The notes below the pieces were generated by a model. It searched no databases. It saw only the letters and a list, made by a program, of their open reading frames with translations, and had not been told where the DNA came from. From Escherichia phage CMSTMSU, in sequence record MH494197.1: 64,000 bases of DNA; one strand, written 5' to 3'. Positions 14,912 through 63,717 of the stretch are shown piece by piece (position 1 is the first letter of the stretch; every line of letters starts with the position of its first letter). Made by a program: the position numbers and the translations under genes.

Positions 14912-15343
14912 TCACAATATCTTTGAAAGTCGAGTATTCTTAAAAATATCTACTAACTCTTTGTAGTACTCAAGATCATATACATCTTTTATAATTAGTG
15001 AGTACTGAAATAGTGATTCTTCAGTTAACTTAAATTCTGGATATAGTAAGTCATTAAATTCTAATGATTCTGATTGTACTTTTATTTTAGTGAAGTCATT
15101 TGTTAATCCACCATTATATCCATATAATGCAGCGTAATTCACGAACTTGGCTTTTGGATTAAAATCAAGAACAGTTTCACCTTTATATGACAATCGGTGG
15201 AACGCCGTGAACTTTGTAATTTGCCACGGTTGCTTAATGCCTAAGTCATTTATGTCTTTATTATTGTACATAAGAACTGTGAATATTTCAGCAATCTTCA
15301 ATAATAATTTAGTACGTGCTAGTACTGTCATAGGTTCAATCAT
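14912..15343 (-). CDS. family A paralog
   Basis: core TEESLFQYSLII near C-terminus. Confidence 0.5.
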   Translation of the reverse strand: MIEPMTVLARTKLLLKIAEIFTVLMYNNKDINDLGIKQPWQITKFTAFHRLSYKGETVLDFNPKAKFVNYAALYGYNGGLTNDFTKIKVQSESLEFNDLLYPEFKLTEESLFQYSLIIKDVYDLEYYKELVDIFKNTRLSKIL

Positions 15344-49099: not shown

Positions 49100-49161
49100 A
49101 GGAGGGAGAACCATTTCCTCTCTATGTAAAACATTATACATGAATCTAAGTACTATGCAAG
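49100..49161 (-). promoter_or_regulatory. PeSL-like cassette (promoter plus 5' stem-loop)
   Basis: minus strand TTGCAT - 16 nt - TATAAT, then short hairpin, then SD/ATG. Confidence 0.5.
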
Positions 49162-49164
49162 TAC

Positions 49165-49498
49165 TTTTACATTTTAATACCGGATTCAGGTAGCGGTGAG
49201 ATCCATATTCTGGATCGGTTTCGGTCCAGTACTGTAAATCGATAGTACCTTTCGCGTTAATCTTGTCTACCAGCTTATTCATCTTAGCGTATACTACGTC
49301 AGCATCGATGCGTTTAAAGCCAGTAGCTTTAGTGAAGTAGTAGTGATTTGCTTCACTATCATTAAGGATATACCGAGCACCGTTTGCCGTTTGTGCGATA
49401 ATGATTGAGTATTCTACGTTACGGTCGAGGCCGTCGATGAATACAGAGGAAACATTAGTACGGATGAAAGCTTTAACGATAGCGATTGAAGTAGTCAT
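49165..49498 (-). CDS. hypothetical protein, 3' end unresolved
   Basis: MTTSIAIVKAFIRTN...; reading frame runs through the downstream cassette without a stop. Confidence 0.35.
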
Positions 49499-49587
49499 TT
49501 TGAATCTCCTAACTTTGTGGGCCGTCGCACCATTGCCGCCCTACGAGATACATTATTGCAGTACTGATATACTTTGTCAATACTTTT

Positions 49588-49725
49588 TATTAATAGTTTT
49601 AGTTCCACCAGCAGATAGTTACTCACCGTTATTAACTATATATTTTGGATACACCTATGCACCCTGTGGGCTAGTTTTTGTCTATGCGTATATATAGCAG
49701 GACTGACCGAGTCAATCCCTTTTTA
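49588..49725. repeat. ~130 bp repeated intergenic element, copy 1
   Basis: shares ATGCACCCTGTGGGCTAG ... TATATAGCA(A)GGACTGACCGAGTCAATCCCTTTTT with copies at 52.3, 55.6 and 60.1 kb. Confidence 0.6.
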
Positions 49726-49956
49726 TTCTTTTTGTTAGATGATTCTCCAATCATCAACGATCATGGTAAGATACCGAACCAGTGATTCGAGTGATTCGTG
49801 TTCTCGATAGTCTGCCGCTCCACCAGCGGTACAAGTACAGCCGATTAAGCCGTTTTGTAGTTCCGGATCTTTACGTCGATCTGGTTGGCTTTAGCTTCTT
49901 TCAGTACTTCAACCGGGCGAGAGCGATAGACATAATGTTTTACTCCAAACTATTGG

Positions 49957-50016
49957 CGGGAGAACTATTCCCCGCTCTATGTAAAACATTATACATTACT
50001 GGTTAGTACTGTCAAA
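49957..50016 (-). promoter_or_regulatory. PeSL-like cassette
   Basis: TTGACA - 16 nt - TATAAT on minus strand, hairpin GCGGG...CCCGC just downstream. Confidence 0.55.
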
Positions 50017-50022
50017 TAGTTT

Positions 50023-50280
50023 TTATGAAATATCTTCGATGTAGTCGGCCCATTTCATTTTTTCAGTACTGTCAATGGCTACCGGATTATTTGGATCAAA
50101 CCATTCACCATTACCGCAGTACATACCCACGGCTACGGTTTTATAGCCATCCCGGGCCGCACACCACGACATTGCACGATAGATATGGCCTTTAACTGGT
50201 TGCAGTACTGGTAACGTTTTATGGTCTTCTACGTAGGCCATAGCTTGTGGATTTACCCGATATTGTGTGAACTGTTCCAT
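50023..50280 (-). CDS. hypothetical protein (85 aa)
   Basis: track ORF; promoter-like sequence upstream. Confidence 0.45.
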   Translation of the reverse strand: MEQFTQYRVNPQAMAYVEDHKTLPVLQPVKGHIYRAMSWCAARDGYKTVAVGMYCGNGEWFDPNNPVAIDSTEKMKWADYIEDIS

Positions 50281-50593
50281 TATGTTTCCCCTTGTAGTTA
50301 GTAAAGTTATTACATCAGTACTATCAAGCTATGTCAATAGTACTGAAATAAAACTTTTAGATTAGATTATTGAGGCCGTCAATGGTAGACTCACTTTCTT
50401 CTTTCTCCCATTGTCGGTAGTACTTCCATGCTTCATGATAGGTGGCGATCAGTTCATCTTTTGATCCGGTTACATGCCAGTACTGAATCACGGTGAGCGG
50501 TGTTATAGATAGAATCGAATGATTTCTTCTCTTCTGCCGTTAGCTACTTCCCGCATCAGTTCATCAAAGTTAGCCATTTTATTACTCCTTTTA

Positions 50594-50650
50594 GTGGGGA
50601 GGATATCTCCCTATGCAAAACATTATACTTTGTTTTAGTTATTATGCAAG
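50594..50650 (-). promoter_or_regulatory. PeSL-like cassette
   Basis: TTGCAT - 15 nt - TATAAT; hairpin GGGAG GATAT CTCCC. Confidence 0.5.
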
Positions 50651-50902
50651 TACTTTTTCATATAAACATTAAATTCTACACCGCCGTAACCTTCCACGAT
50701 GATATGTTTTGCGTTATCACGTTTGCACATAGTGAAACCATCGTTTACGTGTTTTGCATTTTCGGGCGACATCACCGATAGCGGCACATACGGCACTAAT
50801 AACAGTATTCCGCAAAGTACTGGTATCATTGGCGGTCATAGTAGTTTGCAGTACTACGTTGTCGTATACGTGTGCATTGATAGTGATTTCGATAGTGTTC
50901 AT
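50635..50902 (-). CDS. hypothetical small protein, frame-shifted
   Basis: ORFs 50717..50902 and 50635..50829 overlap in two frames and look like one gene. Confidence 0.35.
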
Positions 50903-50916
50903 GGTGTATCTCGACT

Positions 50917-50978
50917 GGCGGGAGAACTATTCCCCGCTCTATGTAAAACATTATACGTTAATCTAACTACAATGCAAG
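50917..50978 (-). promoter_or_regulatory. PeSL-like cassette
   Basis: TTGCAT - 16 nt - TATAAT; hairpin GCGGGAGAACTATTCCCCGC. Confidence 0.55.
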
Positions 50979-51233
50979 TACTTTTAAATTTTATTTCCGA
51001 TATAGTCCGGTCTATTCTTTTCGGTCATACGCTTTGCTAATGTTTGCATATGGCTTATTGCTTGTAGTGTATCCTCTTCCGGGATGAATCGAGATAATCA
51101 GGATCATTCTTCACCTTGCAATGATTATGATAGCGTAGTACTGCCAGTACTTTTTAACTTCTTCTACTGTCATAATAAGTACCCACTTCGTTAGCTTTCA
51201 GGTTAGTATCAATCATCAGTGGATTTTTGTAGT

Positions 51234-51440
51234 TCACAAAACGAGTAGTTTTCTCGATAGCGAATCCCATATAATCCAGCTTACTAACAGTACATTCATT
51301 CTTAAAACTTCTTTCGCTGCATCGATGGCTGATTGCATGGATAACCGACCATCTAAATTAATGTTTCCAAATGATCCACCAGCAGAAGTAGGATTACCGT
51401 TCATATCTTTAATGATCATAGTAGCGGAGTAGCTGGACAT
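51234..51440 (-). CDS. hypothetical small protein
   Basis: track ORF 68 aa; AAGGA SD; cassette immediately upstream. Confidence 0.45.
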   Translation of the reverse strand: MSSYSATMIIKDMNGNPTSAGGSFGNINLDGRLSMQSAIDAAKEVLRMNVLLVSWIIWDSLSRKLLVL

Positions 51441-51463
51441 AATTTTGTTTCCTTTTATTGGTG

Positions 51464-51520
51464 TGGGAGAACTATTCTCCCTTGATGTAAACTATTATAC
51501 AGTACTGATATACTTTGTCA
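51464..51520 (-). promoter_or_regulatory. PeSL-like cassette
   Basis: TTGACA - 16 nt - TATAAT; perfect hairpin GGGAGA ACTAT TCTCCC. Confidence 0.6.
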
Positions 51521-51559
51521 AATACTTTTATTCGCCCATATAGATTAGATTATCATCGC

Positions 51560-51930
51560 CTACATAGGATCGCAAACGTTGATTTCTTCGCAGTACTTCG
51601 TGAATACATCGCCATAGTGACCTAAACCACGATCCCAAAACCAGTTCCGTGACCTTCGCGGGTAAGGAACAGATCATGACCAGCTTGCTCATAACCGTAA
51701 TCAATAAACATACCGCGAACTACTTCCAGATCATTACCGTGTTTCTCAATGAAGCGAGAACATGCAATCACTGCCGCTTGATGGGCTTGCTCTGATAATT
51801 CATAATCTTCCGTAATCGCCGTTCTCATTGTGTACAGTACTGAATTGCATAGCTTCAATGTAAGCTACAACCATTGCAGCATGATTTTTATCGTTAGTGA
51901 TGTTCCGAGCGAGATTAGTAGTAGTAGACA
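51560..51930 (-). CDS. hypothetical protein, frame-shifted
   Basis: ATG MSTTTNLARN...; continues in two other frames through ...REGHGTGFWDRGLGHYGDVF... Confidence 0.35.
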
Positions 51931-51951
51931 TGATTTTATTCCTTTTAGTAT

Positions 51952-52009
51952 CGGGGAGAACTATTCTCCCTTGATGTAAACTATTATACAGTACTAATAT
52001 ACTTTGTCA
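51952..52009 (-). promoter_or_regulatory. PeSL-like cassette
   Basis: TTGACA - 16 nt - TATAAT; hairpin GGGGAGAACTATTCTCCC. Confidence 0.6.
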
Positions 52010-52254
52010 ATACTTAATTACGTTTAAAATGATATGTGCCTTTATCATCCTGTACGCCCCATACTGATTTACCATCAACACCAGTGAAGCCGGATTGTAA
52101 TTCAATATGGAAACCATTATTATCAACTACAAAAACTTTTTATTTTCATCCCGATAACATTGATATTCTGAATCAACATTAAAGGCCGCATCATTCAGAA
52201 GATTAGAAGCGTAAATGCAAGTCATTGTAGTCATGATTTTATTCCTTATTGCCG

Positions 52255-52308
52255 TGGAACCGTTCCTCTCGATATAAAACATTATACTTGATTCTAAGTA
52301 TAATGCAA
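52255..52308 (-). promoter_or_regulatory. PeSL-like cassette
   Basis: TTGCAT - 16 nt - TATAAT; hairpin GGAAC C GTTCC, stem sequence differs from other copies but pairing is kept. Confidence 0.55.
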
Positions 52309-52311
52309 GTA

Positions 52312-52446
52312 CTTTTTAAAATAGTTTTCAGTACTGAATACTTATATAATAGATACACTTCCGCACCCTATGGGTCAGTGAGTTATCTCTCAATGGATAT
52401 ATATAGCAAAGGACTGACCGAGTCAATCCCTTTTTAATCTTTTTAT
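52312..52446. repeat. ~130 bp repeated intergenic element, copy 2
   Basis: CGCACCCTATGGGTCAGTGAG...GGACTGACCGAGTCAATCCCTTTTTAATC. Confidence 0.6.
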
Positions 52447-52507
52447 CGTGTTACCTTACTTGCTGCCACATCACGCTTTTTATAGTACTGATTCCAGATA
52501 TTGCTGG

Positions 52508-52825
52508 TTAAACCGTAATCAAGTACTTTAATAAGTCCATTACGATCCCGCCGATATTCTGTTTTCTGATATCTCTTATCGTTAGTGTTGATAATGTATC
52601 ATCGACGTGTTGTAGTGCATCAGCAAAGCGGTGCTGGCGTTCAATGGCATTACGTTTAATATTGTACTTTAATTCATTGCACGCGTTTACGTGCTTTACA
52701 CTGCCTTTACTTGCAGTACTCAACCGATCCATAACGATAAACATATTATCAGGATCGCATAAATGCATATGCACCTTTGCAAAGTACTGTTTCAACTGAG
52801 GGCGGTCATAGTCTAAAAATTCCAT
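52508..52825 (-). CDS. hypothetical protein (105 aa)
   Basis: track ORF. Confidence 0.45.
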   Translation of the reverse strand: MEFLDYDRPQLKQYFAKVHMHLCDPDNMFIVMDRLSTASKGSVKHVNACNELKYNIKRNAIERQHRFADALQHVDDTLSTLTIRDIRKQNIGGIVMDLLKYLITV

Positions 52826-52891
52826 ACCTTACATTCAGTTTCATTTTGTTCGACACCCGCATCACAATTCGCGACCTTAATCACTAACCGA

Positions 52892-53080
52892 TCATTTAAA
52901 GCGAAAACTATACGGGAAGATCCGCCCGATGATCTCCAGTCCAGCTAACCGACAAGCTGAAAGGATCTCTTTGTTGGTTTCCATTTCTGACAGTGTACGG
53001 ATGAATTTAGTATAATTACGCATTGCATGTTCTCCTTGAGTTAATGAAACTATATTACAGTACTTTACTATCAATGGCAA
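52892..53080 (-). CDS. hypothetical small protein
   Basis: track ORF 62 aa. Confidence 0.35.
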   Translation of the reverse strand: MPLIVKYCNIVSLTQGEHAMRNYTKFIRTLSEMETNKEILSACRLAGLEIIGRIFPYSFRFK

Positions 53081-53296
53081 CTACTTTTTAACATTAACGG
53101 CGTGAATCACTTCCTTAGTGTTTTTAGTACTGAATACTTTCGCCGCTCCTTGTTCGACCGTGATACGATAGCGACCATTAACATCAACCATATTAATAAA
53201 GTCCGGCGTGCTGAATGGTGTTGTTTTGCATTTGAGTACTGTTAACAGTTCCACCAGCGATGTAGTTTCTTTGATACGTTTTTCTAAAGTAATCAT
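53081..53296 (-). CDS. hypothetical small protein
   Basis: track ORF 71 aa; promoter-like repeat upstream, also found before the next gene. Confidence 0.4.
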   Translation of the reverse strand: MITLEKRIKETTSLVELLTVLKCKTTPFSTPDFINMVDVNGRYRITVEQGAAKVFSTKNTKEVIHAVNVKK

Positions 53297-53434
53297 TTTG
53301 TTTCTCCCCGTGTTGGTATGTACATATAGTACTAAAACATTTGAGTACTGTCAATTAGATAATATTATATTTCTTAAAATAAAATGCGTCTTGTGTTGGT
53401 TGATACTCGATACCGTTACCGTTATTGACTTCAA

Positions 53435-53629
53435 CTAATAAACCTTTGTCAATAAGTTTTTAATAGTACGATACCCTTGTTGAAAATTGGTAAAATGTGA
53501 ATCATTACGAAAGGTATAACCGTGCTTAACTGCTTCATCAATAGTTTTCTTTTCGATTTTAGATAATTTCATTTTGTTTCTCCCGTGTTGGTATATGTAC
53601 ATAGTACTAAAACATTTGAGTACTGTCAA
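53435..53629 (-). CDS. hypothetical small protein
   Basis: track ORF; likely start at internal MKLSKIEKK with GGGAGA SD. Confidence 0.4.
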   Translation of the reverse strand: MTVLKCFSTMYIYQHGRNKMKLSKIEKKTIDEAVKHGYTFRNDSHFTNFQQGYRTIKNLLTKVY

Positions 53630-53890
53630 CGTGATATTAGTTTTATTTTCTTATTGTATTGTTGATGCTCATAAAGGTTTATCTTTCCTGTGTTCTCGAT
53701 TACTATCCTGTTGTTAGTGTCCACATCGATTACACGCAGTTTCCGTTGCTTAACTTCCGGGTAATAGGTTACCATTAATAAACTCATTAGCAAGCTGTAC
53801 GGCCTTTGTGATGATTCTCTTCGGTGCTTTATAGTGTACCCGTAAGATGTTATCTTTATATAGTTGAACCTTAATCATTTTGTTTGTCCT

Positions 53891-53916
53891 ATAAAAAGGC
53901 GGGAACTGATCCCGCC
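53891..53916 (-). terminator. rho-independent terminator (minus strand)
   Basis: stem GGCGGGA/TCCCGCC, loop ACTGA, followed by U-run in minus transcript. Confidence 0.6.
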
Positions 53917-54423
53917 GTGTTGTTAGTACTGCAAGTTATTAGATAACCGGCGGCGTTTACTGTATACTGTTACACGATTACCCTTACGGTCGTGTCGGAT
54001 CTCTTTCTGGTTGCGAATCAGTTCACTTGGACGCTTAAGGTTTGCCGTGATCCGCGTGAGTCCATGCATTGGCATTTACCTGTACTTTGATATCAGAACC
54101 AGCGATAAACTCATCTTGTGCGTCAGTATTGCCGCCAGCATATCCGCTCGTTTTAGTTCTGCTGCTGTTAGTACTGGCTCAGGTGAATTCACAATATCAG
54201 AGATCTTTGAACTGTACGGCCCAGCGTTGGCCTTTCGGTGCATCTTTGCCCATGTCTTTAAATGCTGCTCCTTCCTCGCGTGCAACAATACGGGCAGCTT
54301 CACGGGTAGCGTAGAATTTAGTAATCATGGTATACATCCTATTAGTTAAGTTAGTACTACAAGTTAGAGTCTATTATAAAGTACTATCTGGGCAATGTCA
54401 AATAGTACTTTAAATGGATTCTA

Positions 54424-54745
54424 TTACATGTCTTTCTTACGTTTTACATCGTGGTAGCGAACTGTTATTTCTTTGTTGATCTCTTCCTCGATGCGGTGAA
54501 TAACTTTTTCTTTCGGGTTGAAACCTATAACGGTTTCTTTAATGATCTCAAGCCCGTGTATTCGCCTTGTGTACCGTAACCGTATGTAAAGGTTTCGTGT
54601 CCCGTGTCTTCCAGCGGTCGCCAATTAACGCAGACACGTAGCAAGAGTGGTAAGTATTGCCGTGTGAATCAGTCCACCGATTAACGTTAATGTCAAAGGA
54701 GGTTACAATTTTCAATTCTACTTTCTGGGCAAGGATCATAGCCAT
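54424..54745 (-). CDS. hypothetical protein, frame-shifted
   Basis: MAMILAQKVELKIV...NVNRWTDSHGNTYHSCYVS; two overlapping track ORFs. Confidence 0.4.
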
Positions 54746-54764
54746 TTTATTTCTCTCTTTTAGT

Positions 54765-54825
54765 TAGGAGGAACCATTCCCTCACTTGATGTAAACTATT
54801 ATACAGTACTAAGATACTTTGTCAA
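54765..54825 (-). promoter_or_regulatory. PeSL-like cassette
   Basis: TTGACA - 16 nt - TATAAT; hairpin in 5' leader. Confidence 0.55.
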
Positions 54826-54843
54826 TACTTATTTTTGGAAAGT

Positions 54844-55008
54844 TTACGCATTAATTCTACGCTTTCTTGTGAACGTTTTGCTACCGGCAAGCTGCATGGG
54901 TAGTAAACATTTTGTATAGTCTGACGCTTTGCCACCGAACCGAGCGGCACGTTCACGGGCACTTGGAACTAATACTATTTCTTTCTTGCAGATAGTGCAC
55001 TTAGCCAT
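54844..55008 (-). CDS. small Cys-containing protein (54 aa)
   Basis: MAKCTICKKEIVLVPSARERAARFGGKASDY...; own cassette upstream. Confidence 0.4.
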   Translation of the reverse strand: MAKCTICKKEIVLVPSARERAARFGGKASDYTKCLLPMQLAGSKTFTRKRRINA

Positions 55009-55027
55009 TTTATTTCTCTCTCTTTGT

Positions 55028-55089
55028 TAGAGGGGAACCGTTTCCTCACTCGATGTAAACTATTATACAGTACTAAGATACTTTGTCAA
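55028..55089 (-). promoter_or_regulatory. PeSL-like cassette
   Basis: TTGACA - 16 nt - TATAAT; hairpin GGAA ACGG TTCC. Confidence 0.55.
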
Positions 55090-55093
55090 TACT

Positions 55094-55366
55094 TAATTAT
55101 TGTAAATGTCGTGAATAGTGATAAAGTTTTTACGACCGTAAACCTGCAAATCAATATCAATGTAGTGCTTATCTAGTACATCCTCGACGCTTAACGCGGT
55201 GTCGTGGATATCTTCGTAGAATTGAGTATCTACAATCTTGCTTAAGTCATCCGGCGTTAACTCATCGTTAAGCAGTTGAACCGCCGGATATCTGCTTCAC
55301 GTTTCCAGTCTTCCAGTTAGTAGTCAGTACTTGTTCGATTTCGTTAGCTGTCAGTAGAATCCGCAT
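55094..55366 (-). CDS. hypothetical protein, frame-shifted
   Basis: MRILLTANEIEQVL... then ...LLNDELTPDDLSKIVDTQFYEDIHD... in another frame. Confidence 0.35.
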
Positions 55367-55547
55367 TTTTATGTTTCCTTATCAGTGGTTGATGTAAGTA
55401 TTATACTCGTTTACTTTCTATTGTCAAACTATTTTATCAGGGAGTTTTTCGTATGTCTTACTCGACTACTTAACGGGGTTACTTGTTTCGTTCCCCGTCC
55501 TGATGTAAAACATTATACTTGATTCTAAGTACAATGCAAGTACTTTT

Positions 55548-55670
55548 TAAAAATAGTTTTCAGTACTAGCCACCAGCAAACAATAGATACATTTATGCAC
55601 CCTGTGGGCTGATTTGTTTCTATGCGTATATAATAGCAAAGGACTGAATCCCTTATTCAATTATTTTTAA
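55548..55670. repeat. ~130 bp repeated intergenic element, copy 3
   Basis: ATGCACCCTGTGGGCTGA...TATAATAGCAAAGGACTGAATCCC. Confidence 0.55.
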
Positions 55671-55816
55671 ACTTCTTTCGGGTTGCGATAGGTGATAGCG
55701 TTCGGGTACATTTGTTTAATGTTATTCCATGCCCGGTTGACATTGTAACCACTTGATCGAATCAGTTGGTTACTACCGACACCTTGAAACACTACTTCGA
55801 ATAAGAATTCTTTCAT
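55668..55816 (-). CDS. small hypothetical protein (49 aa)
   Basis: MKEFLFEVVFQGVGSNQLIRSSGYNVNRAW... Confidence 0.3.
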
Positions 55817-56286
55817 GCTTTCACCTCGCGATCTGCTTTACCTTTACGCCGACATTACTAATTGTTCGCGTTGCCATAAGTCGAGTGATACAAAAGTTTT
55901 GCGGTATCACTTTTAGGATACTCGCCATTAGTACCTAACCGATAAAACAGATCTTTCAGTACTGATAATTCTACTTGGATCATTATACTTTCTCTTTGTT
56001 GGGAGGGAACTATTCTTCCGATATAAAACATTATACACTTTATTCAGTACAAGTACTTTTAATCTTTCAGCCAATGATCCTGAATGAATTTTTCACCGGA
56101 ACCTTGCTGCATTGATTGTAACAGACGTTCACGATGAGCGGCGGCGAATTGCTCAGTACTATGCGTTACACCGGTTGATATCTGGATTCACCATTGGGGC
56201 TGATGTATTGTACATCCCACGGTTTTTCGTTAGTATCAGACCATTTACGAACGATTAGTTGACCTTGCATTTTTCTTTCTCTTAGT

Positions 56287-56346
56287 GGGGAGAATCATTT
56301 CTCCCCTTCATGTAACTTATTATACAGTACTAGATTATCTTGTCAA
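56287..56346 (-). promoter_or_regulatory. PeSL-like cassette
   Basis: TTGACA - 16 nt - TATAAT; perfect 8 bp hairpin GGGGAGAA TCAT TTCTCCCC. Confidence 0.6.
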
Positions 56347-56351
56347 TAGTT

Positions 56352-56636
56352 TTATTCACCTTGTTTGAATTTAGTTTTCTCCATTGATTCCATGATTGCA
56401 ACCAATACGCCGTGGATCTCGCTTAACGCGGAATCACTAAAAGCATTAATGAATAGTCGATCATTCTCGCGAATATTTTTAATGTACTTTTCAGCAGTAG
56501 TTGCGAATTCATTCAACGGTAGATCAAATGCTTTATCCCATGATGGATGGCGTAATTGTAACAGTACTGGATTATCACGATCACGGGAAAACGTACCAGT
56601 GATGAAACATACGCCCGAATACTTTCGAACTGGCAA
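56352..56636 (-). CDS. hypothetical protein (94 aa)
   Basis: track ORF. Confidence 0.45.
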   Translation of the reverse strand: MPVRKYSGVCFITGTFSRDRDNPVLLQLRHPSWDKAFDLPLNEFATTAEKYIKNIRENDRLFINAFSDSALSEIHGVLVAIMESMEKTKFKQGE

Positions 56637-56959
56637 CGGACTTCCTTTGTGATAGTAGTATGAATGTACATTTATTGTTATCCTCTATTAAATTAATATT
56701 ACAGTTTATGAATCAATTCTTTATCTAAGCGATAGCGTACATTATTAATAGTAACGGCATTGTTTTAATGCTACGCTGTACAGGTCCACCAGCAATAACA
56801 AATGTTGCTTTATTACCCCGAACAATGATAGCACTTCCGTGATTACCGAAATCATCTTGTACTAAAATACTTGATAAGTTTTCCATTTTATTTCTCTTAG
56901 TAGGGAAGATGTTTCCTTGATGTAAGTACTATAACAGTACTGAAAACTAATTGCAAGTA

Positions 56960-57313
56960 CTATGATAAAATCATGATAGGATATTCACTATCGATCAGTA
57001 CCTCGAATCCGAACCCTTCGTACCATTCTTTAAGATTAAAGGCGTTATCTTCTCCGTATCGCATTCTAAGATGATACAATCTGAATCATCAGCGGCATCG
57101 ATAAAGGCATTCATTAATTCGTTACCTTCACCATTGCCCCGACTATCAGGATCAACATAAAGAGAATCAATGAAAGCAACACGGTCATAATCAAGATCCG
57201 GTGCAATGATTCCACGTTTAACAAACCAGTACTGCAATTGTGCTACTTTGCTGTACCTGATAACCAGTGATCTCGCCATTGTCAGTAGTACGCGTGATAT
57301 GTTGTATTCCCAT
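56960..57313 (-). CDS. GNAT-family N-acetyltransferase-like small protein, frame-shifted twice
   Basis: acetyl-CoA-binding motif ...VDPDSRGNGEGNELMNAFIDAA... and C-terminal ...EWYEGFGFEVL... readable across three frames. Confidence 0.5.
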
Positions 57314-57962
57314 GATTTCTATCCTCAGTTAAGATATAAAACATTATACACTATCTTTCAGTACTGTCAATTACTTTTATCTCATAGATCTATGCCAACA
57401 ATTACGCGGATCTCTTTAAAAGTACTATCATGATCCTCCGGCAAGTAATACAATACATGCACCTATAACGGCCCGGCGTCGATTCTCAGGGATTTTACCG
57501 CCGCAGTCGAGGCAATGTACAGTGATTCTCTTTGTGCGTTAATTTGCTTTCTAGCGTGGTTAACGGCGGCCTGAATCACTGCGTTAATCTCGTCTTGTTC
57601 GGCCCCGTCTTTCGCGAATCCTACAGCCATTATTTTAACCTCATTATAAAAATACTATAGTACTGTAATGCTACAATAATACTACTAGTGCTAATCTTAT
57701 TCAAACCACATGATACTACATATCCACCAGCATTACCACGGATAGTAACGCCTTTGTACTGTCTATATAAATTCAACTGCGTATATTGCCTTTGATCAAG
57801 AATTGATCAGAATTATACGCCTTATGCTAAATTGATCCAGTACTTTTGATCATTTATTGATCGATGTTATATAGTTACATTTGTGCACCCTATGGGTTAG
57901 TGACGTTCTCGTCTTGATGTAAGTATTATGCCAGTACTGGAGGATATTGTCAATAGATTATT

Positions 57963-58160
57963 TTAATTTTTTCTATCATTAATTAATGCTTTCAGTACTA
58001 TACTAATAACTTGCAATGATTCATCAATGACAATGAAATTATTCTCTTTCATTAGATGATAGTTACCATTGATTGTATATTCTAACGAGTACTGTTTACG
58101 TTTAATTTTTGATAATGTTTCTATTTGTTTTTGTACTGATTTCATGCTAATCATTGTCAA
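57963..58160 (-). CDS. hypothetical small protein
   Basis: track ORF 65 aa. Confidence 0.35.
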   Translation of the reverse strand: MTMISMKSVQKQIETLSKIKRKQYSLEYTINGNYHLMKENNFIVIDESLQVISIVLKALINDRKN

Positions 58161-58983
58161 ACGTCCTGTAACGCATTCTAACGAGATAAACGGTTGAGTA
58201 CTGGCATTGTATAGGGTAATGATTAAAGCCCACCAGCGTTAACCAGTGGGCTATAATCTTACATCTTGCGGATAATCTTAACAGTATCTTTCACCGATTT
58301 ACCGTTTTGCTGACATTGCTCGATCATCGCGTATTGTTCTGCGGTCAGATCCTCGCCAGTTTTTGCCAGTACTGCGTCGATGAATGAATCCAGTGCGATC
58401 ATTTTGTTTCTCTCTTAGGTTAAGTTAACTACTGTTTATAAAACTTATTATACAGTACTATCAAACTATGTCAATAGTACTGGTAATATATTTTAGCGGT
58501 AGTCGTCGTATGCTTTATTCACGGCGAATATAACTTTCAAAGGCTTCGTCTACCGTTTCATACTCCCGAACATAATCACCATATGAAACTACATACATAC
58601 CTTTTGATCTTCAAACGTCATGATGATAGAATCCAGACCAACGATTTCAGTTTTTGCGATGATAGCCATTTTTAATTCCTTAGTAGTGTAGTTGATAAAA
58701 GTTATTATGTCAGTACTATCAAACTATGTCAATAGTACTGTGATAATATTTTAGTTAATGATAGTCAGTGTAAAATTGTAATCCCCTGCCCGTATAGTAC
58801 TTTATCGCCGAACGTTCCAACACGTTTCATATTGCAATAGATACCCATAACACTTTTACATCTTTGATATTCCGAACGCCAGTAATATCCTTGTTTAAAT
58901 GATCGTGATCAGAAAATAAAACTTGTTTTGCATTTTTCAGTACAGTGCAGATATTAGCCATTTTGTTTTCTCTTCTGTTAGTG

Positions 58984-59041
58984 GGGAGAAGTTTTTCTCC
59001 CTTGATGTAAACTATTATACAGTACTATAATCTATTGTCAA
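58984..59041 (-). promoter_or_regulatory. PeSL-like cassette
   Basis: TTGACA - 16 nt - TATAAT; hairpin GGGAGA AGTTTT TCTCCC. Confidence 0.6.
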
Positions 59042-59414
59042 ACTATTTTTTATATTATTCGAAATCTTCTGGACCGGACTGATAATCATCTTCACCGTAT
59101 GCACTTTCTAACCGCTCGCCAGTGCAATCATCAGTTAGTGAGTCATCCTCATAGTTCACGTCTACGCCAGTGATGTAAAACTGGCTATCGTCTGGATCAT
59201 TGAAATTAATTTTCTGGATGTTTACAATAACTGTATTGATGCCGTGACACCGCCATCAGCCGTTACAAAGTACTGATATTTTTCACAACCGCCTGAATTG
59301 AAACCGTAATTAATTTCGGCCCGACCATCACTTAAACGCAGTGTCTGAGCGATGATTTCATTTTCAAAGTTAGATTGAGCAATTGCAATAGTCATGATTT
59401 GTTTCTTATTATCA

Positions 59415-59471
59415 GGGAAACCGTTTCCCTTTCGATGTAAAACATTATACGCTTATCAGGAAGTAATGCAA
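59415..59471 (-). promoter_or_regulatory. PeSL-like cassette
   Basis: TTGCAT - 16 nt - TATAAT; hairpin GGGAAA CCG TTTCCC. Confidence 0.55.
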
Positions 59472-59957
59472 GTACTATTTCACGTTAATTTCAAAGTACT
59501 GCTCTTTGATGTTTTCCTGTTGGTAAATCTCGTTTAATGCTTTAAGATCTAAAACCTGTTTACCTGCTGCCTGAATATACTTTTAAGAGTCGCTAACAGC
59601 TTCTCAGGCGTGTTTGTAGTCTTACGTGTTGGGATCTTATCGTGCCCCATAGCGTAGTACTGCTTACGTGCTATAGTACTGATAACACTGCGGTACGGTT
59701 CCATGATCAGCTTGTCTGTATTCGTCGCTATCCCCAAACTTCATACCGTGGATCGCAAAGGTCATCATCATGCGGTCGTTATCGCGGATATTGTGGGGCA
59801 GTCGGCAAGCTCGCGAGTCAGTGACATAGTGATCCCCACGTCGCCACCCAGCGGTAAAGGTCGGGCGATAAAGAAACCGTTAGGGAATACTTTCAGGAAG
59901 TTTTCTTGAACTGCTGCGACGAATTCGATGCTATTCATAATTCATTTCCTTAATTAG

Positions 59958-60015
59958 TGGGGAAGTTGTTTCCTCTTGATGTAAAACATTATACGCCTAT
60001 TGAGATAGTTTGCAA
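59958..60015 (-). promoter_or_regulatory. PeSL-like cassette
   Basis: TTGCAA - 16 nt - TATAAT; hairpin GGAA GTTGT TTCC. Confidence 0.5.
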
Positions 60016-60032
60016 GTACTTTCTACAAATAC

Positions 60033-60160
60033 TTTTAAAATAGTTTTCAGTACTCAATACTCATATAATAGATACACTTATGCACCCTGTGGGCTAGTGA
60101 GCTATCTCTCAATGAATATATAATAGCAAAATGGCTGACCGAGTCAACCACTTTTTCATT
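60033..60160. repeat. ~130 bp repeated intergenic element, copy 4
   Basis: ATGCACCCTGTGGGCTAGTGAGCTATCTCTCAATGAATATATAATAGCAAAATGGCTGACCGAGTCAACC. Confidence 0.6.
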
Positions 60161-60271
60161 TATTTTAGCTTTTAGAATCGCCGCCTTTCGCGTCATGCCT
60201 TGCTTGATGTATTCTGTACTTTCGCTTTACGTGCATTCGCTTTATTTGCTTTCGTAAACGCCGAACAACTT

Positions 60272-60580
60272 TTATAGTTTAAACCTGTTGGATTCATTTA
60301 AATCACCATAAAGAATAGATAGGTTACTAACAACGCCGCGATCAATGCACCGACCGAACTGTAATAAGCTAATGATCTCATTTTTAGCCTGAAAATAATG
60401 TTTAATTTGAGCGGCGGTCAGTGCACAATTACGCAGGAAGTTTTCTGTATAACTTTTGCGAGTACTGAAAGAGAATTGACCTTTGCTGCTGCCGATAGTA
60501 ACATCAAACCGAGCGTTGTATTGTTTCATTTTGTTTCTCCTGTTATTGGGGAGAATCATTTCTCCCTTCATGTAAAACAT
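60272..60580 (-). CDS. hypothetical protein
   Basis: track ORF 102 aa; probable start at internal MKQYNARFDV. Confidence 0.4.
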   Translation of the reverse strand: MFYMKGEMILPNNRRNKMKQYNARFDVTIGSSKGQFSFSTRKSYTENFLRNCALTAAQIKHYFQAKNEIISLLQFGRCIDRGVVSNLSILYGDLNESNRFKL

Positions 60581-60605
60581 TATACAGTACTAAAACTAAT
60601 TGCAA
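60548..60605 (-). promoter_or_regulatory. PeSL-like cassette
   Basis: TTGCAA - 15 nt - TATAAT; hairpin GGGGAGAATCATTTCTCCC, identical to copy at 60771. Confidence 0.55.
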
Positions 60606-60770
60606 GTACTATTTTTAGATTTACGCAAACTTTCTACCATCTCAGGAGTAAGGTCTGCGGGTAGGAAACTACTTCATCAACGAAACGTAAAGGAATACCC
60701 CAGCGAAAGGTGAACGTGCTTTCTTAGTATTACTCTTTTTGATGCTTTCATTTCATATTCTTAATTAGTG

Positions 60771-60827
60771 GGGAGAATCATTTCTCCCTTCATGTAAAAC
60801 ATTATACGCGTTTAAAACTAATTGCAA
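60771..60827 (-). promoter_or_regulatory. PeSL-like cassette
   Basis: TTGCAA - 15 nt - TATAAT; hairpin GGGGAGAATCATTTCTCCC. Confidence 0.55.
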
Positions 60828-61691
60828 GTACTATTTGAAAGTAAATGCTCATACGCTACATTAACTACGTTTTCAATAACCGACTGTACAGAAAGATCCC
60901 CACTTCCGGCTATAGTAGAAATCGCTTACAGTAGTGTCATCGTATGCAAATACTTTACCGTGACTGCATCAATCACATACATATTAACCTTTAAGATGTC
61001 GATCTTATCCTGTACAGTAAGCATATTAATTAACCTTTTAAGTACTGACTTAAGTAATCTTGTTGATCTTCGGTGATTGCAGCCATCTTCCCTAGTACTG
61101 GATTAATGATATAATCCCTGTAACGTCCTGTAACGCATTCTCAGGCGGTTTAACGGCTGGGGTAGCCATAGCCATTGCCGACTTGTTCGACGCTGTAACG
61201 CTCATAAAGGCGGCATTCTTCCGGTGTTAACATAGCATCAATGCGTTTCATTGGTTTAATGATGCTTTCGATCTCATTCAGTACTTGATTAACGTTCATG
61301 GTATAATCCCAATATAAGCGGCCTAAATCGACCGCTAACGATGTTTTGATTAATAGGTGTATGGTTGACGTTCAAACAATGATTGCACGTTGTACGCCCC
61401 GCTTATGGGCTTTGCTGGTAAATCAATTTTATATTGTTCACGCTTAAAGATAATAAAACGGCAATTGTTTTAACATCAAAATTGATTGAACGTTCCGAGT
61501 TTACCATCGTGCACAAATACAAGATAACCGCTCGCTACTTGTTTTGTAGTACTGGTTGCAACCATAGACCGCCGAACATGTGTACCTGCGTCGATTAAAG
61601 TACTGATATTTTTCATTTTACTATCCTCTTAAGTTGATTTAATTTCTTTCCCTATGCAGACACTGTACCAAAGTATCTGCATAAAGTAAAG

Positions 61692-62013
61692 CTAATTAAA
61701 GATCTTTTTACGTTTTACATCCTGTACAGTACAATGCAACGGGATAGACAAATCATTGCACAAACGATAGAGGGAGGTTTCATCAGTATTAAGCCCGTCT
61801 ACTGATTCCTTTAAGAGAGATAACGCCGTTTGTTGGTATGCATCTTCATAGCCATAAGTAAATGATTCAACCGCCAGATCATTCAAGCCGTTATCCAGTT
61901 CGACGCTTACATGACAAGAATGATGTATTGCCATATGAATCAGACCAACGTTTACCGTCAACATTGATTGCACGGATTGCAGCCGAAACGGTGTTAATGA
62001 TAGTTTTAGCCAT
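61692..62013 (-). CDS. hypothetical protein, frame-shifted; paralog of 54424..54745
   Basis: MAKTIINTVSAAIRAINVDGKRWSDSYGN then ...HHSCHVSVELDNG...; shares RW-x-DS-x-GN-x-YHSC-x-VS with 54424..54745. Confidence 0.4.
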
Positions 62014-62263
62014 TTTAGTATTCCTTAAATTAATATGTGTCGTCTTGATAAAATCTATTATGCCAGTACTATCAAACTATGTCAATAGTACTGTGATAAT
62101 ATTTTTACTTACTTTTTGCTTTCTTTATTGCTTCCACCGGTCGGCCCATTCTTTACCCCATACTTGTAAATTATAATGGTACTGGCAAAGTGCAACGCCC
62201 CGCTTTAAACCAGTAATAGATTTTTACCACATTGACAAGTTTTCATTTTAGTTTCCTTGTAGT

Positions 62264-62321
62264 GGGAGAACCATTTTCCCCTTGATGTAATGTATTATAC
62301 TTTATTCGATTTACTTTGCAA
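62264..62321 (-). promoter_or_regulatory. PeSL-like cassette
   Basis: TTGCAA - 16 nt - TATAAT; hairpin GGGAGAACCATTTTCCC. Confidence 0.5.
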
Positions 62322-62338
62322 GTACTTTTTAATTTAAT

Positions 62339-62551: not shown

Positions 62552-62986
62552 TTTTTAATTCCTATTCAGTAGTTGATGTATGTATTATGCCAGTACTTAA
62601 AACTATTGTCAAACTATTTTTAAAGTTTATCAATGATTGATGCCGTTTCATTGATAGTCTTGCCGTGTTTTGCACACGCGATAACTGCTTTAAATTCCTT
62701 TGATGACCAATCTTTCTTACTGCATACTGACATTACTTGTAAAGTAAAACAATCCAGTTCATAAGTATTCATCTTTATATCCTCAGTTAGTTAAGGTGTC
62801 TGCCTTGATGTAATTAATTATACGCTAATCTCTTAATCGTGCAAGTACTTTTATTACTTTTTGCAAAATACTTTAAACGCTCTCAATCGCATTACAACGA
62901 CCTTAACGCCACCAGCTAGGCAATGCATCAGATAATCAGTTTAAAGCGTTAGAATCGTTTCTAGGCGGTGCTGGTGGCGTAAACGA

Positions 62987-63015
62987 TAAAAAAAGCCCAC
63001 CGTTTAAGGTGGGCT
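62987..63015 (-). terminator. rho-independent terminator (minus strand)
   Basis: 8 bp GC-rich stem AGCCCACC/GGTGGGCT, loop GTTTAA, followed by 7 U in minus transcript; 13 nt downstream of stop at 63028. Confidence 0.7.
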
Positions 63016-63690: not shown

Positions 63691-63717
63691 ACAAAACAAA
63701 AAGCCCACCCGTGGGCT
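63691..63717 (-). terminator. rho-independent terminator (minus strand)
   Basis: stem AGCCCAC/GTGGGCT with U-rich tail in minus transcript. Confidence 0.55.

Follow-up and report, generated by a model that had tools for sequence, protein, structure and literature searches.

The cassettes of T4-like phages known as PeSLs join a sigma-70 early promoter to a G(n)-loop-C(n) stem-loop, followed by a Shine-Dalgarno (SD) sequence and an ATG (PMC2839356, PMC4122927). They are found before orphan genes in plastic regions, have measured promoter and attenuator activity, and play a role in modular shuffling (PMC2839356, PMC4122927); the stem-loop lies upstream of, inside or just past the promoter, before the start site, and five subclasses have been distinguished (PMC2839356). 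Here we analyse a stretch of 64,000 nucleotides (nt) of Escherichia phage CMSTMSU (record MH494197.1; hereafter the window), which carries an array of about 18 promoter-leader cassettes, each with a hairpin in the leader of a predicted early transcript. Pairing in this hairpin is kept while the sequence of its stem diverges, meaning that selection acts on the fold itself. We found no description of the leader hairpin in the papers searched on CBB/Rak2-like and Asteriusvirus phages, rV5, PA5oct and fEgEco12.

The window comes from a jumbo coliphage of the Asteriusvirus type, its positions 49100-56000 being 95-96% identical to WPEC3, Ecwhy_1, fEgEco12 and G17 (genomes of about 350-380 kb). By genome comparison, the counterpart of this segment in fEgEco12 and vB_Ec-M-J lies within a direct terminal repeat of about 21 kb (PMC13070987), and 49.1-64 kb is the homologue of the terminal-repeat early region of Asteriusvirus genomes; in G17 the counterpart region is a series of small hypothetical genes on a single strand. 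Every gene of 49.1-64 kb is on the minus strand, and a near-perfect sigma-70 promoter stands ahead of most of them. The minus-strand promoters of 49-64 kb include 11 with a perfect 12/12 match and many with 10-11/12, together with an AT-rich upstream tract and intergenic repeats. In order, a cassette consists of the AT-rich tract, a -35 hexamer (TTGACA or TTGCAA), a spacer of 16-17 nt, a TATAAT -10 hexamer, the box (G/A)TTTACAT(C/A)(A/G)AG (ACAUCAAG), a G/C-rich stem-loop, some 11-23 nt, the SD and the ATG of a small gene. Across the roughly 18 cassettes the 5' arm of the stem is purine-rich and the 3' arm pyrimidine-rich. This cassette probably drives most small genes of the terminal-repeat early region in Asteriusvirus-type jumbo phages.

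Strong promoters were scanned in genomes of clean sequence, namely G17, TH47, WPEC3, a Klebsiella jumbo phage of the RaK2 group (OU509535) and the Vequintavirinae phage A73. The position of the hairpin is fixed: in 33 of 35 clean cassettes the stem begins 11-15 nt past the -10 hexamer, and it has 7-10 bp, a loop of 3-5 nt, and an end 11-23 nt ahead of the ATG. Leader hairpins are far commoner than chance, as a hairpin of -7 kcal/mol or below follows 29 of 45 strong promoters in G17 versus 12.5% of random 36-nt windows, and one of -10 kcal/mol or below follows 53% versus 4.5%. Strong G17 hairpins stand immediately past a -10 in 31 of 54 cases on the gene strand and in 2 of 42 on the other. The stems that share this one position are diverse, including GCGGGAA/UUCCCGC, GGUGGGGAA/UUCCCCAC, GGGAAUGAA/UUCAUUCCC and GGGGAUACA/UGUAUCCC. 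G17 has GGGGAGAA/UUCUCCCC, GCGGGGGAA/UUCUCCCGC, AGCGGGAA/UUCCCGCU, GGUGGGGAA/UUCCCCACU, GGCGGGGA/UCCCCGCU, AGGGGAAA/UUUCCCCU, GAGGGGAA/UUCCCCUC and GGGGGAG/CUCCCCC, and the Klebsiella phage carries unrelated stems at the same place in the cassette (GGGAAUGAA/UUCAUUCCC, GGGGAUACA/UGUAUCCCU, GGAGAUUCCA/UGGAAUCUCC, GGGGCAA/UUGCCCC and GAGAGA/UCUCUC). Loops vary as well (UAG, AUGA, AUGG, AAAC, CGG, CAC, GCGGU, AUAUC and others).

Covariation was assessed in a loop-anchored, ungapped alignment of 44 copies from the clean genomes. Paired cells amount to 88.4%, against 66.8% after shuffling, 80 cells are changed on both sides against 21, and the covariation score is 0.641 against 0.206; none of 500 shuffles reaches any of these values, slid controls score 0.14-0.26, and both-side changes occur at 9 of 9 stem pairs. 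Swapping arms between copies shortens the helix in the clean genomes from 8.1 bp (cognate) to 3.7 bp (non-cognate; reached by 0 of 10000 permutations), and in the window alone from 6.6 to 4.4 bp (20 of 10000). Among 25 distinct stem types, pairs 1-6 are paired in 100%, pair 7 fails in one row, and most positions show three to four pair types. A first-pass annotation of this DNA, made from its letters alone, had proposed selection on single-strand structure rather than on sequence, and these figures bear it out. Comparison of orthologues, defined by the same downstream gene, gives a stem that is kept with a changed loop (G17 19044 vs TH47 29308, CAC vs UGG), interchange of G-C and G.U relative to TH47 (G17 1762 and G17 11232), and replacement of C-G by A-U (G17 2737 vs TH47 14915), for which recombinational replacement of the cassette is a possible alternative cause. 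A sequence-only MAFFT alignment of 35 cassettes gave no consensus structure with RNAalifold, because variable stem and loop lengths misalign the arms, and the loop-anchored alignment was used instead. The covariance model built from the latter had no match at default filters; without filters it retrieved the leader hairpins of G17, with higher scores on the sense strand. Since the model favours consensus-like stems, it was kept out of the statistics.

The window itself carries numerous short deletions: 174 (with 20 insertions) in 14.9 kb relative to its closest relative WPEC3, and 75 (with 3 insertions) in 6.9 kb relative to G17. Homopolymer runs account for 108 of the 174 and CCWGG motifs for 30. 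There are no CCWGG sites in the 64 kb, where about 35 are expected from composition, versus 44 in the homologous 15 kb of WPEC3, and many open reading frames (ORFs) are broken in the window, including ones that are intact in G17. From the one-sided excess of deletions and the complete lack of CCWGG sites we infer an assembly with systematic errors at homopolymers and Dcm-type sites, a pattern typical of unpolished nanopore-only assemblies of Dcm-methylated DNA. The G/C runs of the hairpin stems are directly affected. A WPEC3 counterpart was matched to 17 of the 18 window cassettes, one being identical and 16 folding more stably in WPEC3 (-9 to -16.4 kcal/mol), mostly with longer G/C runs; for the eighteenth (60806) the match was to another WPEC3 cassette. 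The window is unreliable at G/C runs and CCWGG sites, so that any motif-level reading needs a check in a clean relative.

This applies to the six compensatory examples on which the earlier claim was built. The hairpins exist on the minus strand (51465-51481, 56287-56306, 49957-49975, 52256-52266, 59414-59430 and 55034-55045), and their kind recurs in about 18 cassettes over 49.1-62.3 kb. As evidence of compensation, however, GGGAGA/TCTCCC, GGGGAGAA/TTCTCCCC, GGAA/TTCC and GGAAC/GTTCC are nested pieces of related stems: the WPEC3 orthologues of the copies at 51464 and 56287 have one identical stem, GGGGAGAA/UUCUCCCC, and by comparison with WPEC3 the GGAAC/GTTCC at 52255 represents AGGGGGAA-CGG-UUCUCCCU in garbled form, beside a lost CCTGG site, and the GGAA/TTCC at 55028 is GAGGGGGAA-UGG-UUCCCCUC. 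The differences among these nested examples are largely sequencing artefacts. GGGAAA/TTTCCC, whose true form is AGGGGAAA/UUUCCCCU, and the GC...GC extension of the stem at 49957 are genuine variants. Structural conservation is stronger than is visible from the window, and the evidence first offered for it was flawed by the choice of substrings and by sequence errors; the observation is partly confirmed and its interpretation partly supported.

Leader folds exceed those of the reverse complement in stability 30 times, match them 3 times and fall short of them 13 times (Wilcoxon p=0.013), and the loop-anchored alignment holds 16 G.U cells versus 3 A.C cells. Because sense folds are more stable and G.U pairs are in excess, a sense-strand (transcript) structure is favoured, and the structure is likely formed by RNA. 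The coordinates of the array, of its leader hairpins and of the terminators used for contrast are collected in Table 1.

Table 1. Minus-strand features of the array, with the -10 hexamer of each cassette and the form of the hairpin in relatives
Feature	Position	Strand	Details
Array of ~18 promoter-leader cassettes	49100-62330	-	repeat families D1-D6; Asteriusvirus homology
Hairpin GGGGAA-aatgg-TTCTCC	62265-62281	-	-10 62294-62299; WPEC3 orthologue GGGGAGAA-aatgg-TTCTCCCC, -13.8 kcal/mol
Hairpin GGGAGAA-atga-TTCTCCC	60771-60788	-	-10 60801-60806
Hairpin GGGAGAA-atga-TTCTCCC	60549-60566	-	-10 60579-60584; WPEC3 orthologue GGGGAGAA/TTCTCCCC
Hairpin, degraded in window, GAGGAAACAACTTCCCC	59960-59977	-	-10 59988-59993; WPEC3 orthologue GAGGGGAAACAACTTCCCCC, -9.0 kcal/mol
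Hairpin AGGGAAA-cgg-TTTCCCT, true variant stem	59414-59430	-	-10 59444-59449; orthologue AGGGGAAA/TTTCCCCT
Hairpin GGGAGAA-aaac-TTCTCCC	58984-59001	-	-10 59014-59019
Hairpin, degraded, AGGAAACATCTTCCCT	56902-56918	-	-10 TATAGT 56928-56933; orthologue AGGGGAA-acatc-TTCCCCT, -10.6 kcal/mol
Hairpin GGGGAGAA-atga-TTCTCCCC, 8 bp, -13.9 kcal/mol	56287-56306	-	-10 56319-56324
Hairpin, degraded, GGAAGAATAGTTCCCTCCC	56001-56021	-	-10 56030-56035; WPEC3 orthologue GGAAGGGGAA-tag-TTCCCCTCC, -16.4 kcal/mol
Hairpin GAGGAAACGGTTCCCCTC	55030-55049	-	-10 55062-55067; WPEC3 orthologue GAGGGGGAA-tgg-TTCCCCTC
Hairpin GAGGGA-atgg-TTCCTC	54766-54785	-	-10 54798-54803; orthologue GAGGGGAA-tgg-TTCCCCTC
Hairpin, garbled, GGAA-cgg-TTCC	52252-52270	-	-10 52281-52286; WPEC3 orthologue AGGGGGAA-cgg-TTCTCCCT, then CCTGG missing from window
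Hairpin GGGAGAA-tag-TTCTCCC	51954-51970	-	-10 51983-51988
Hairpin GGGAGAA-tag-TTCTCCC	51465-51481	-	-10 51494-51499
Hairpin GCGGGGAA-tag-TTCTCCCGC	50919-50937	-	-10 50950-50955; G17 orthologue GCGGGGGAA/TTCTCCCGC, mid-stem G.U pair
Hairpin GGGAG-atatc-CTCCC	50597-50611	-	-10 50622-50627; orthologue GGGGGAG/CTCCCCC, -15 kcal/mol
Hairpin GCGGGGAA-tag-TTCTCCCGC	49957-49975	-	-10 49988-49993
Hairpin, degraded, GAGAGGAAATGGTTCTCCCTCC	49102-49124	-	-10 49133-49138; orthologue GAGAGGGGGAA-atgg-TTCTCCCTCC, -15.9 kcal/mol
Canonical intrinsic terminator, for contrast	53898-53916	-	GGCGGGATCAGTTCCCGCC then TTTTT; others 62994-63015, 63702-63717

The Klebsiella phage OU509535 stands apart in some of its copies. 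Its leader hairpins at 15044 and 23423 (locus L005) are perfect 24-nt palindromes, AGAGATTCCAGTACTGGAATCTCT, others of its leader stems have 9-10 bp and are unrelated to the consensus of the E. coli phages, and the Asteriusvirus stem GGGGAGAA-TAG-TTCTCCCC recurs without change in its cassette 20436. The centre of the perfect palindromes is AGTACT, a ScaI site, which occurs 240 times in the 64-kb window (for example at 51500-51506, 50010-50016 and 53330-53350) against about 20 expected from a rough composition estimate, and is equally frequent in WPEC3 (96 vs 94 in 15 kb). AGTACT forms part of the promoters, at the -35 in AGTACTTGCAA and in AGTACTGTATAAT, an extended -10, and is common inside genes too.

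What the hairpin does can be read from sequence at about even odds: we give a probability of roughly 0.5 to a reading in which the 5' leader of early mRNAs forms an RNA stem-loop that acts in cis as a portable stabiliser or insulator module. Starts are usually spaced about 7 (6-8) nt past the -10, which here would be the A of ACAUCAAG. The stem begins downstream of this predicted start and hence within the 5' leader, as first proposed; it would be near the 5' end rather than at its extreme, with 4-8 nt (ACAUCAAG) left unpaired before it. Stem-loops at the 5' end stabilise E. coli mRNAs, such as that of ompA, and structures impede the scanning of RNase E from the 5' end. The leader stem-loop would likewise act post-transcriptionally and independently of sequence, as a stabiliser or insulator of the mRNA. 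It could hinder 5'-end-dependent access or scanning by RNase E, might protect the end of the upstream cistron on read-through transcripts by halting 3' exonucleases there, and could keep the ribosome-binding site free of interference from the purine-rich and pyrimidine-rich leader. Whatever gene is placed behind the cassette would in this way be robustly expressed.

Several observations weigh against a stabiliser or insulator, or against the strength of the structural case on which it builds. The weak point is the 4-8 predicted unpaired nucleotides, which exceed the roughly 2-4 tolerated by classical 5'-terminal stabilisers. About one third of the early promoters are without a hairpin, so that it is not required for expression. 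Because the alignment was anchored on predicted loops and its copies were picked for foldability, pairing is inflated, and since many cassettes are paralogues, the number of independent events is below that of cells. A mismatch count that is strand-symmetric and looser, admitting weak AT-rich hairpins, is not significant (14 G.U vs 8 A.C, p=0.29); the call for RNA is therefore only moderately strong and rests on the G/C-rich set. Finally, a pure structure model leaves unexplained the polarity of the arms, with a purine fraction of 0.91 in the 5' arm versus 0.09 in the 3' arm, which might be the product of a history of transitions with G.U intermediates or of a bias towards initial transcripts rich in purines.

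Hairpin-less promoters with an ACATCAA box occur in the array at 62589, 62062, 58709, 58452, 55405 and 50314. Their ACAUCAA box and SD context are the same as in hairpin cassettes, for which reason the hairpin looks like an added module. They include a second class (62584-62612, 62057-62085, 58704-58732 and 55400-55427) with TTGACA, 17 nt and (TG)CATAAT or TATAAT, the ACAUCAAC box of the hairpin cassettes, and a short leader of about 25 nt running directly into the SD. Longer direct repeats exist among this class, pairing 58649-58752 with 62002-62105 and 53307-53364 with 53582-53639.

The other explanation that survives best, although we regard it as unlikely, is a PeSL-type attenuator that doubles as a recombination linker. 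A G/C hairpin without a U-tract would damp transcription from the upstream tandem promoters and from its own, equalising expression over the array, and the cassette of about 90 bp would offer a patch of homology for gene shuffling. The G(n)-loop-C(n) stem-loops found in promoter cassettes of RB49 and phi1 lower lacZ expression as much as rrnB T1 does, and gene exchange takes place through them (PMC2839356). The hairpin cassettes ahead of orthologous genes differ between G17, TH47 and WPEC3, and long indels separate the window from WPEC3; 14 small early genes with their cassettes are also common to the unrelated Vequintavirinae phage A73, in shuffled order. However, a hairpin inside its own transcript would attenuate its own gene, the region has canonical U-tailed terminators where they are needed (from our scan and the G17 annotation), and homology-driven shuffling accounts for the conservation of the cassette, not for compensatory change in the stem. 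Nor is the hairpin an intrinsic terminator, as the first-pass annotation had seen. The two are alike in a G/C-rich stem of 7-10 bp and a short loop, but terminators have a U-tract and follow the gene, whereas the leader hairpins have no U-tract (mean 1.7 T and at most 4 in the 10 nt past the stem) and follow the promoter; a terminator consensus scan of the gene strand flagged none of them and did flag U-tailed terminators elsewhere (Table 1).

It is quite unlikely that box and hairpin form a recognition or processing signal, marking early mRNAs for timed inactivation by a structure-specific nuclease, RegB-like ones included. T4 sets a precedent in the RegB shut-off of early mRNAs (PMC3014915), the conserved ACAUCAAG box lies immediately 5' of the stem, and RNase-toxin-like proteins are encoded in the same region of related phages, for instance a putative YafQ-like protein annotated in Muenster. 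Yet the box is also present in hairpin-less cassettes, and stems and loops vary too much to be read by their sequence. The link to RegB drawn in the first-pass annotation from a GGAG in the hairpin is not supported, since 21 of 25 stem types lack GGAG and the other 4 have it base-paired, and RegB needs an unpaired GGA, RNA structure protecting against it (PMC3014915). T4 RegB sites share with some stems the GGAG and the setting of an early phage mRNA, but have it unpaired and in an A-rich context (cleavage site GG*AGRAYARAA), whereas in the leader hairpins it is rare and paired. A tblastn search with T4 RegB gave 1138 records, and among the 12 matches listed, which span the range from the strongest to the weakest and are all in records of at most 175 kb, there is no jumbo phage; the window covers 64 kb of a genome of about 350 kb. 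Loop variability also argues against a loop-reading protein, and with it against an antiterminator hairpin of the lambda nut/boxB type, which combines a conserved loop read by an N-like protein with a boxA. Rfam covariance models had no relevant match at E<=1 in 47-64 kb of the window or in 1-25 kb of G17, and there are no tRNA genes in 47-64 kb.

Very unlikely, too, is a palindrome without function of its own that came along when the cassette was duplicated and has been maintained through gene conversion or hairpin-templated repair. Identical stems are shared by many copies that are recent paralogues, and most differences are transitions that preserve the purine/pyrimidine polarity; however, wholly different stems are found at this position in another genus, pairing persists in the stems although the loops drift, and the 25 stem types are fully paired at six positions with a single failure at the seventh. 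We consider highly improbable a palindrome that works as DNA, whether as the operator of a dimeric protein, a cruciform or an N4-type single-strand DNA hairpin promoter. The inverted repeat does span about +6 to +30, where operators typically lie, perfect palindromes centred on AGTACT occur among the Klebsiella copies, and a hairpin formed by single-stranded non-template DNA would match the RNA in sequence; but it is complementarity that is conserved and not sequence, the opposite of an operator, mid-stem G.T pairs of the sense strand correspond to A.C mismatches in its complement, the loops of 3-6 nt are variable, and nothing points to an N4-type virion RNA polymerase, for which no search was made. 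Least probable is a translational switch in which the 3' arm (UUCUCCCC, anti-SD-like) pairs with either the 5' arm (on) or the SD (off). Complementarity of 5-6 bp between 3' arm and SD is seen in a few cassettes (e.g. UUCUCC/GGAGAA, G17 11232), but the alternative fold averages -2.9 kcal/mol (z=0.04 vs shuffles, 31 cassettes) against a hairpin stable by 10-16 kcal/mol with nothing obvious to remove its 5' arm, and 88% of minimum-free-energy folds leave the SD unpaired.

Two other kinds of non-coding unit accompany the cassettes. One is repeated at 49640-49735, 52330-52445, 55560-55660, 57860-57955 and 60040-60165 and consists of a promoter followed by a conserved ...CUA(A/G)CCCAC(A/C)GGGUGCA... 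element; its opposite strand has a U-tailed hairpin (GGACTGACCGAGTCAATCC then TTTTT) that is annotated as a terminator in G17. These units, which G17 and TH47 have in both orientations, match neither Rfam nor tRNA models and could be small RNA genes. The other, a unit of about 115 nt without an ORF at 55405-55525 on the minus strand, has a consensus promoter, a long-loop hairpin ACGGGGAAC...CCCCGU, about 50 nt and then the next promoter. It is kept in G17 (two copies), TH47 and the unrelated A73 (locus L004 19890-20010; about 84-88% identity), and is a candidate small RNA.

Phage A73 (Vequintavirinae, 142 kb) carries the same cassettes, including an identical GGGGAGAA-UAG-UUCUCCCC hairpin and a GGCGGGGA/UCCCCGCC variant. 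The 14 small early genes of its region 72001-88000 that are common to G17, TH47 or both have 30-91% amino-acid identity, lie in a different order, and each stand behind the same type of cassette. Because A73 shares both the genes and the cassettes, the comparison suggests an exchange of gene-plus-promoter modules between unrelated phage families. A bolder proposal, which we hold as tentative and somewhat doubtful, is that the unit of promoter, box, hairpin and SD is a horizontally mobile, plug-and-play expression module. Its RNA stem-loop would be under purifying selection for structure alone, it would be exchanged with small early (host-takeover or anti-defence) genes among Asteriusvirus, Alcyoneusvirus and the 140-kb Vequintavirinae, and its hairpin would stabilise or insulate the mRNA and so make expression independent of context. 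If this is true, a single portable regulatory module, with a leader stem-loop as its sole structure-constrained part, underlies the early arrays of both jumbo coliphages and rV5-like phages. It would give a handle on the uniform and robust expression of dozens of orphan host-takeover genes, on the movement of such genes between phage families, and on whether PeSL-like stem-loops stabilise, attenuate or recombine. The cassettes would then also be natural and compact promoter-plus-5'-insulator parts for engineering.

5' stabilisers and PeSLs are among the known systems closest to these leaders. Synthetic 5' hairpin insulators exist, and the classical stabilisers of 5' untranslated regions, of the ompA type, need about 2-4 or fewer unpaired nucleotides at the 5' end. 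The leader hairpins resemble both in having a stable stem-loop near the (here predicted) mRNA 5' end that is sequence-independent and upstream of an unpaired SD, and differ from the ompA type in their predicted 4-8 unpaired nucleotides. If the mobile-module proposal holds, they would be a natural counterpart of the synthetic insulators and a transcribed-leader variant of PeSLs. With PeSLs the cassettes share an intergenic composite motif of about 90 bp, made of an AT-rich tract, a near-consensus sigma-70 promoter, a G/C-rich stem-loop, an SD and an ATG, as well as its repetition before numerous small orphan genes of a plastic early region and a probable association with the shuffling of genes between phages. 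The stem-loop of PeSLs, however, is variable in position, lies before the start and was assayed as a terminator or attenuator, whereas here it is fixed and inside its own predicted transcript; it covaries here, a property not analysed for PeSLs; and the phages that carry it are not T4-like but belong to Asteriusvirus, Alcyoneusvirus and the Vequintavirinae. Judged by their sequence organisation, the cassettes are PeSL-like, PeSLs being the closest kind described, but with a putatively transcribed and covarying leader hairpin.

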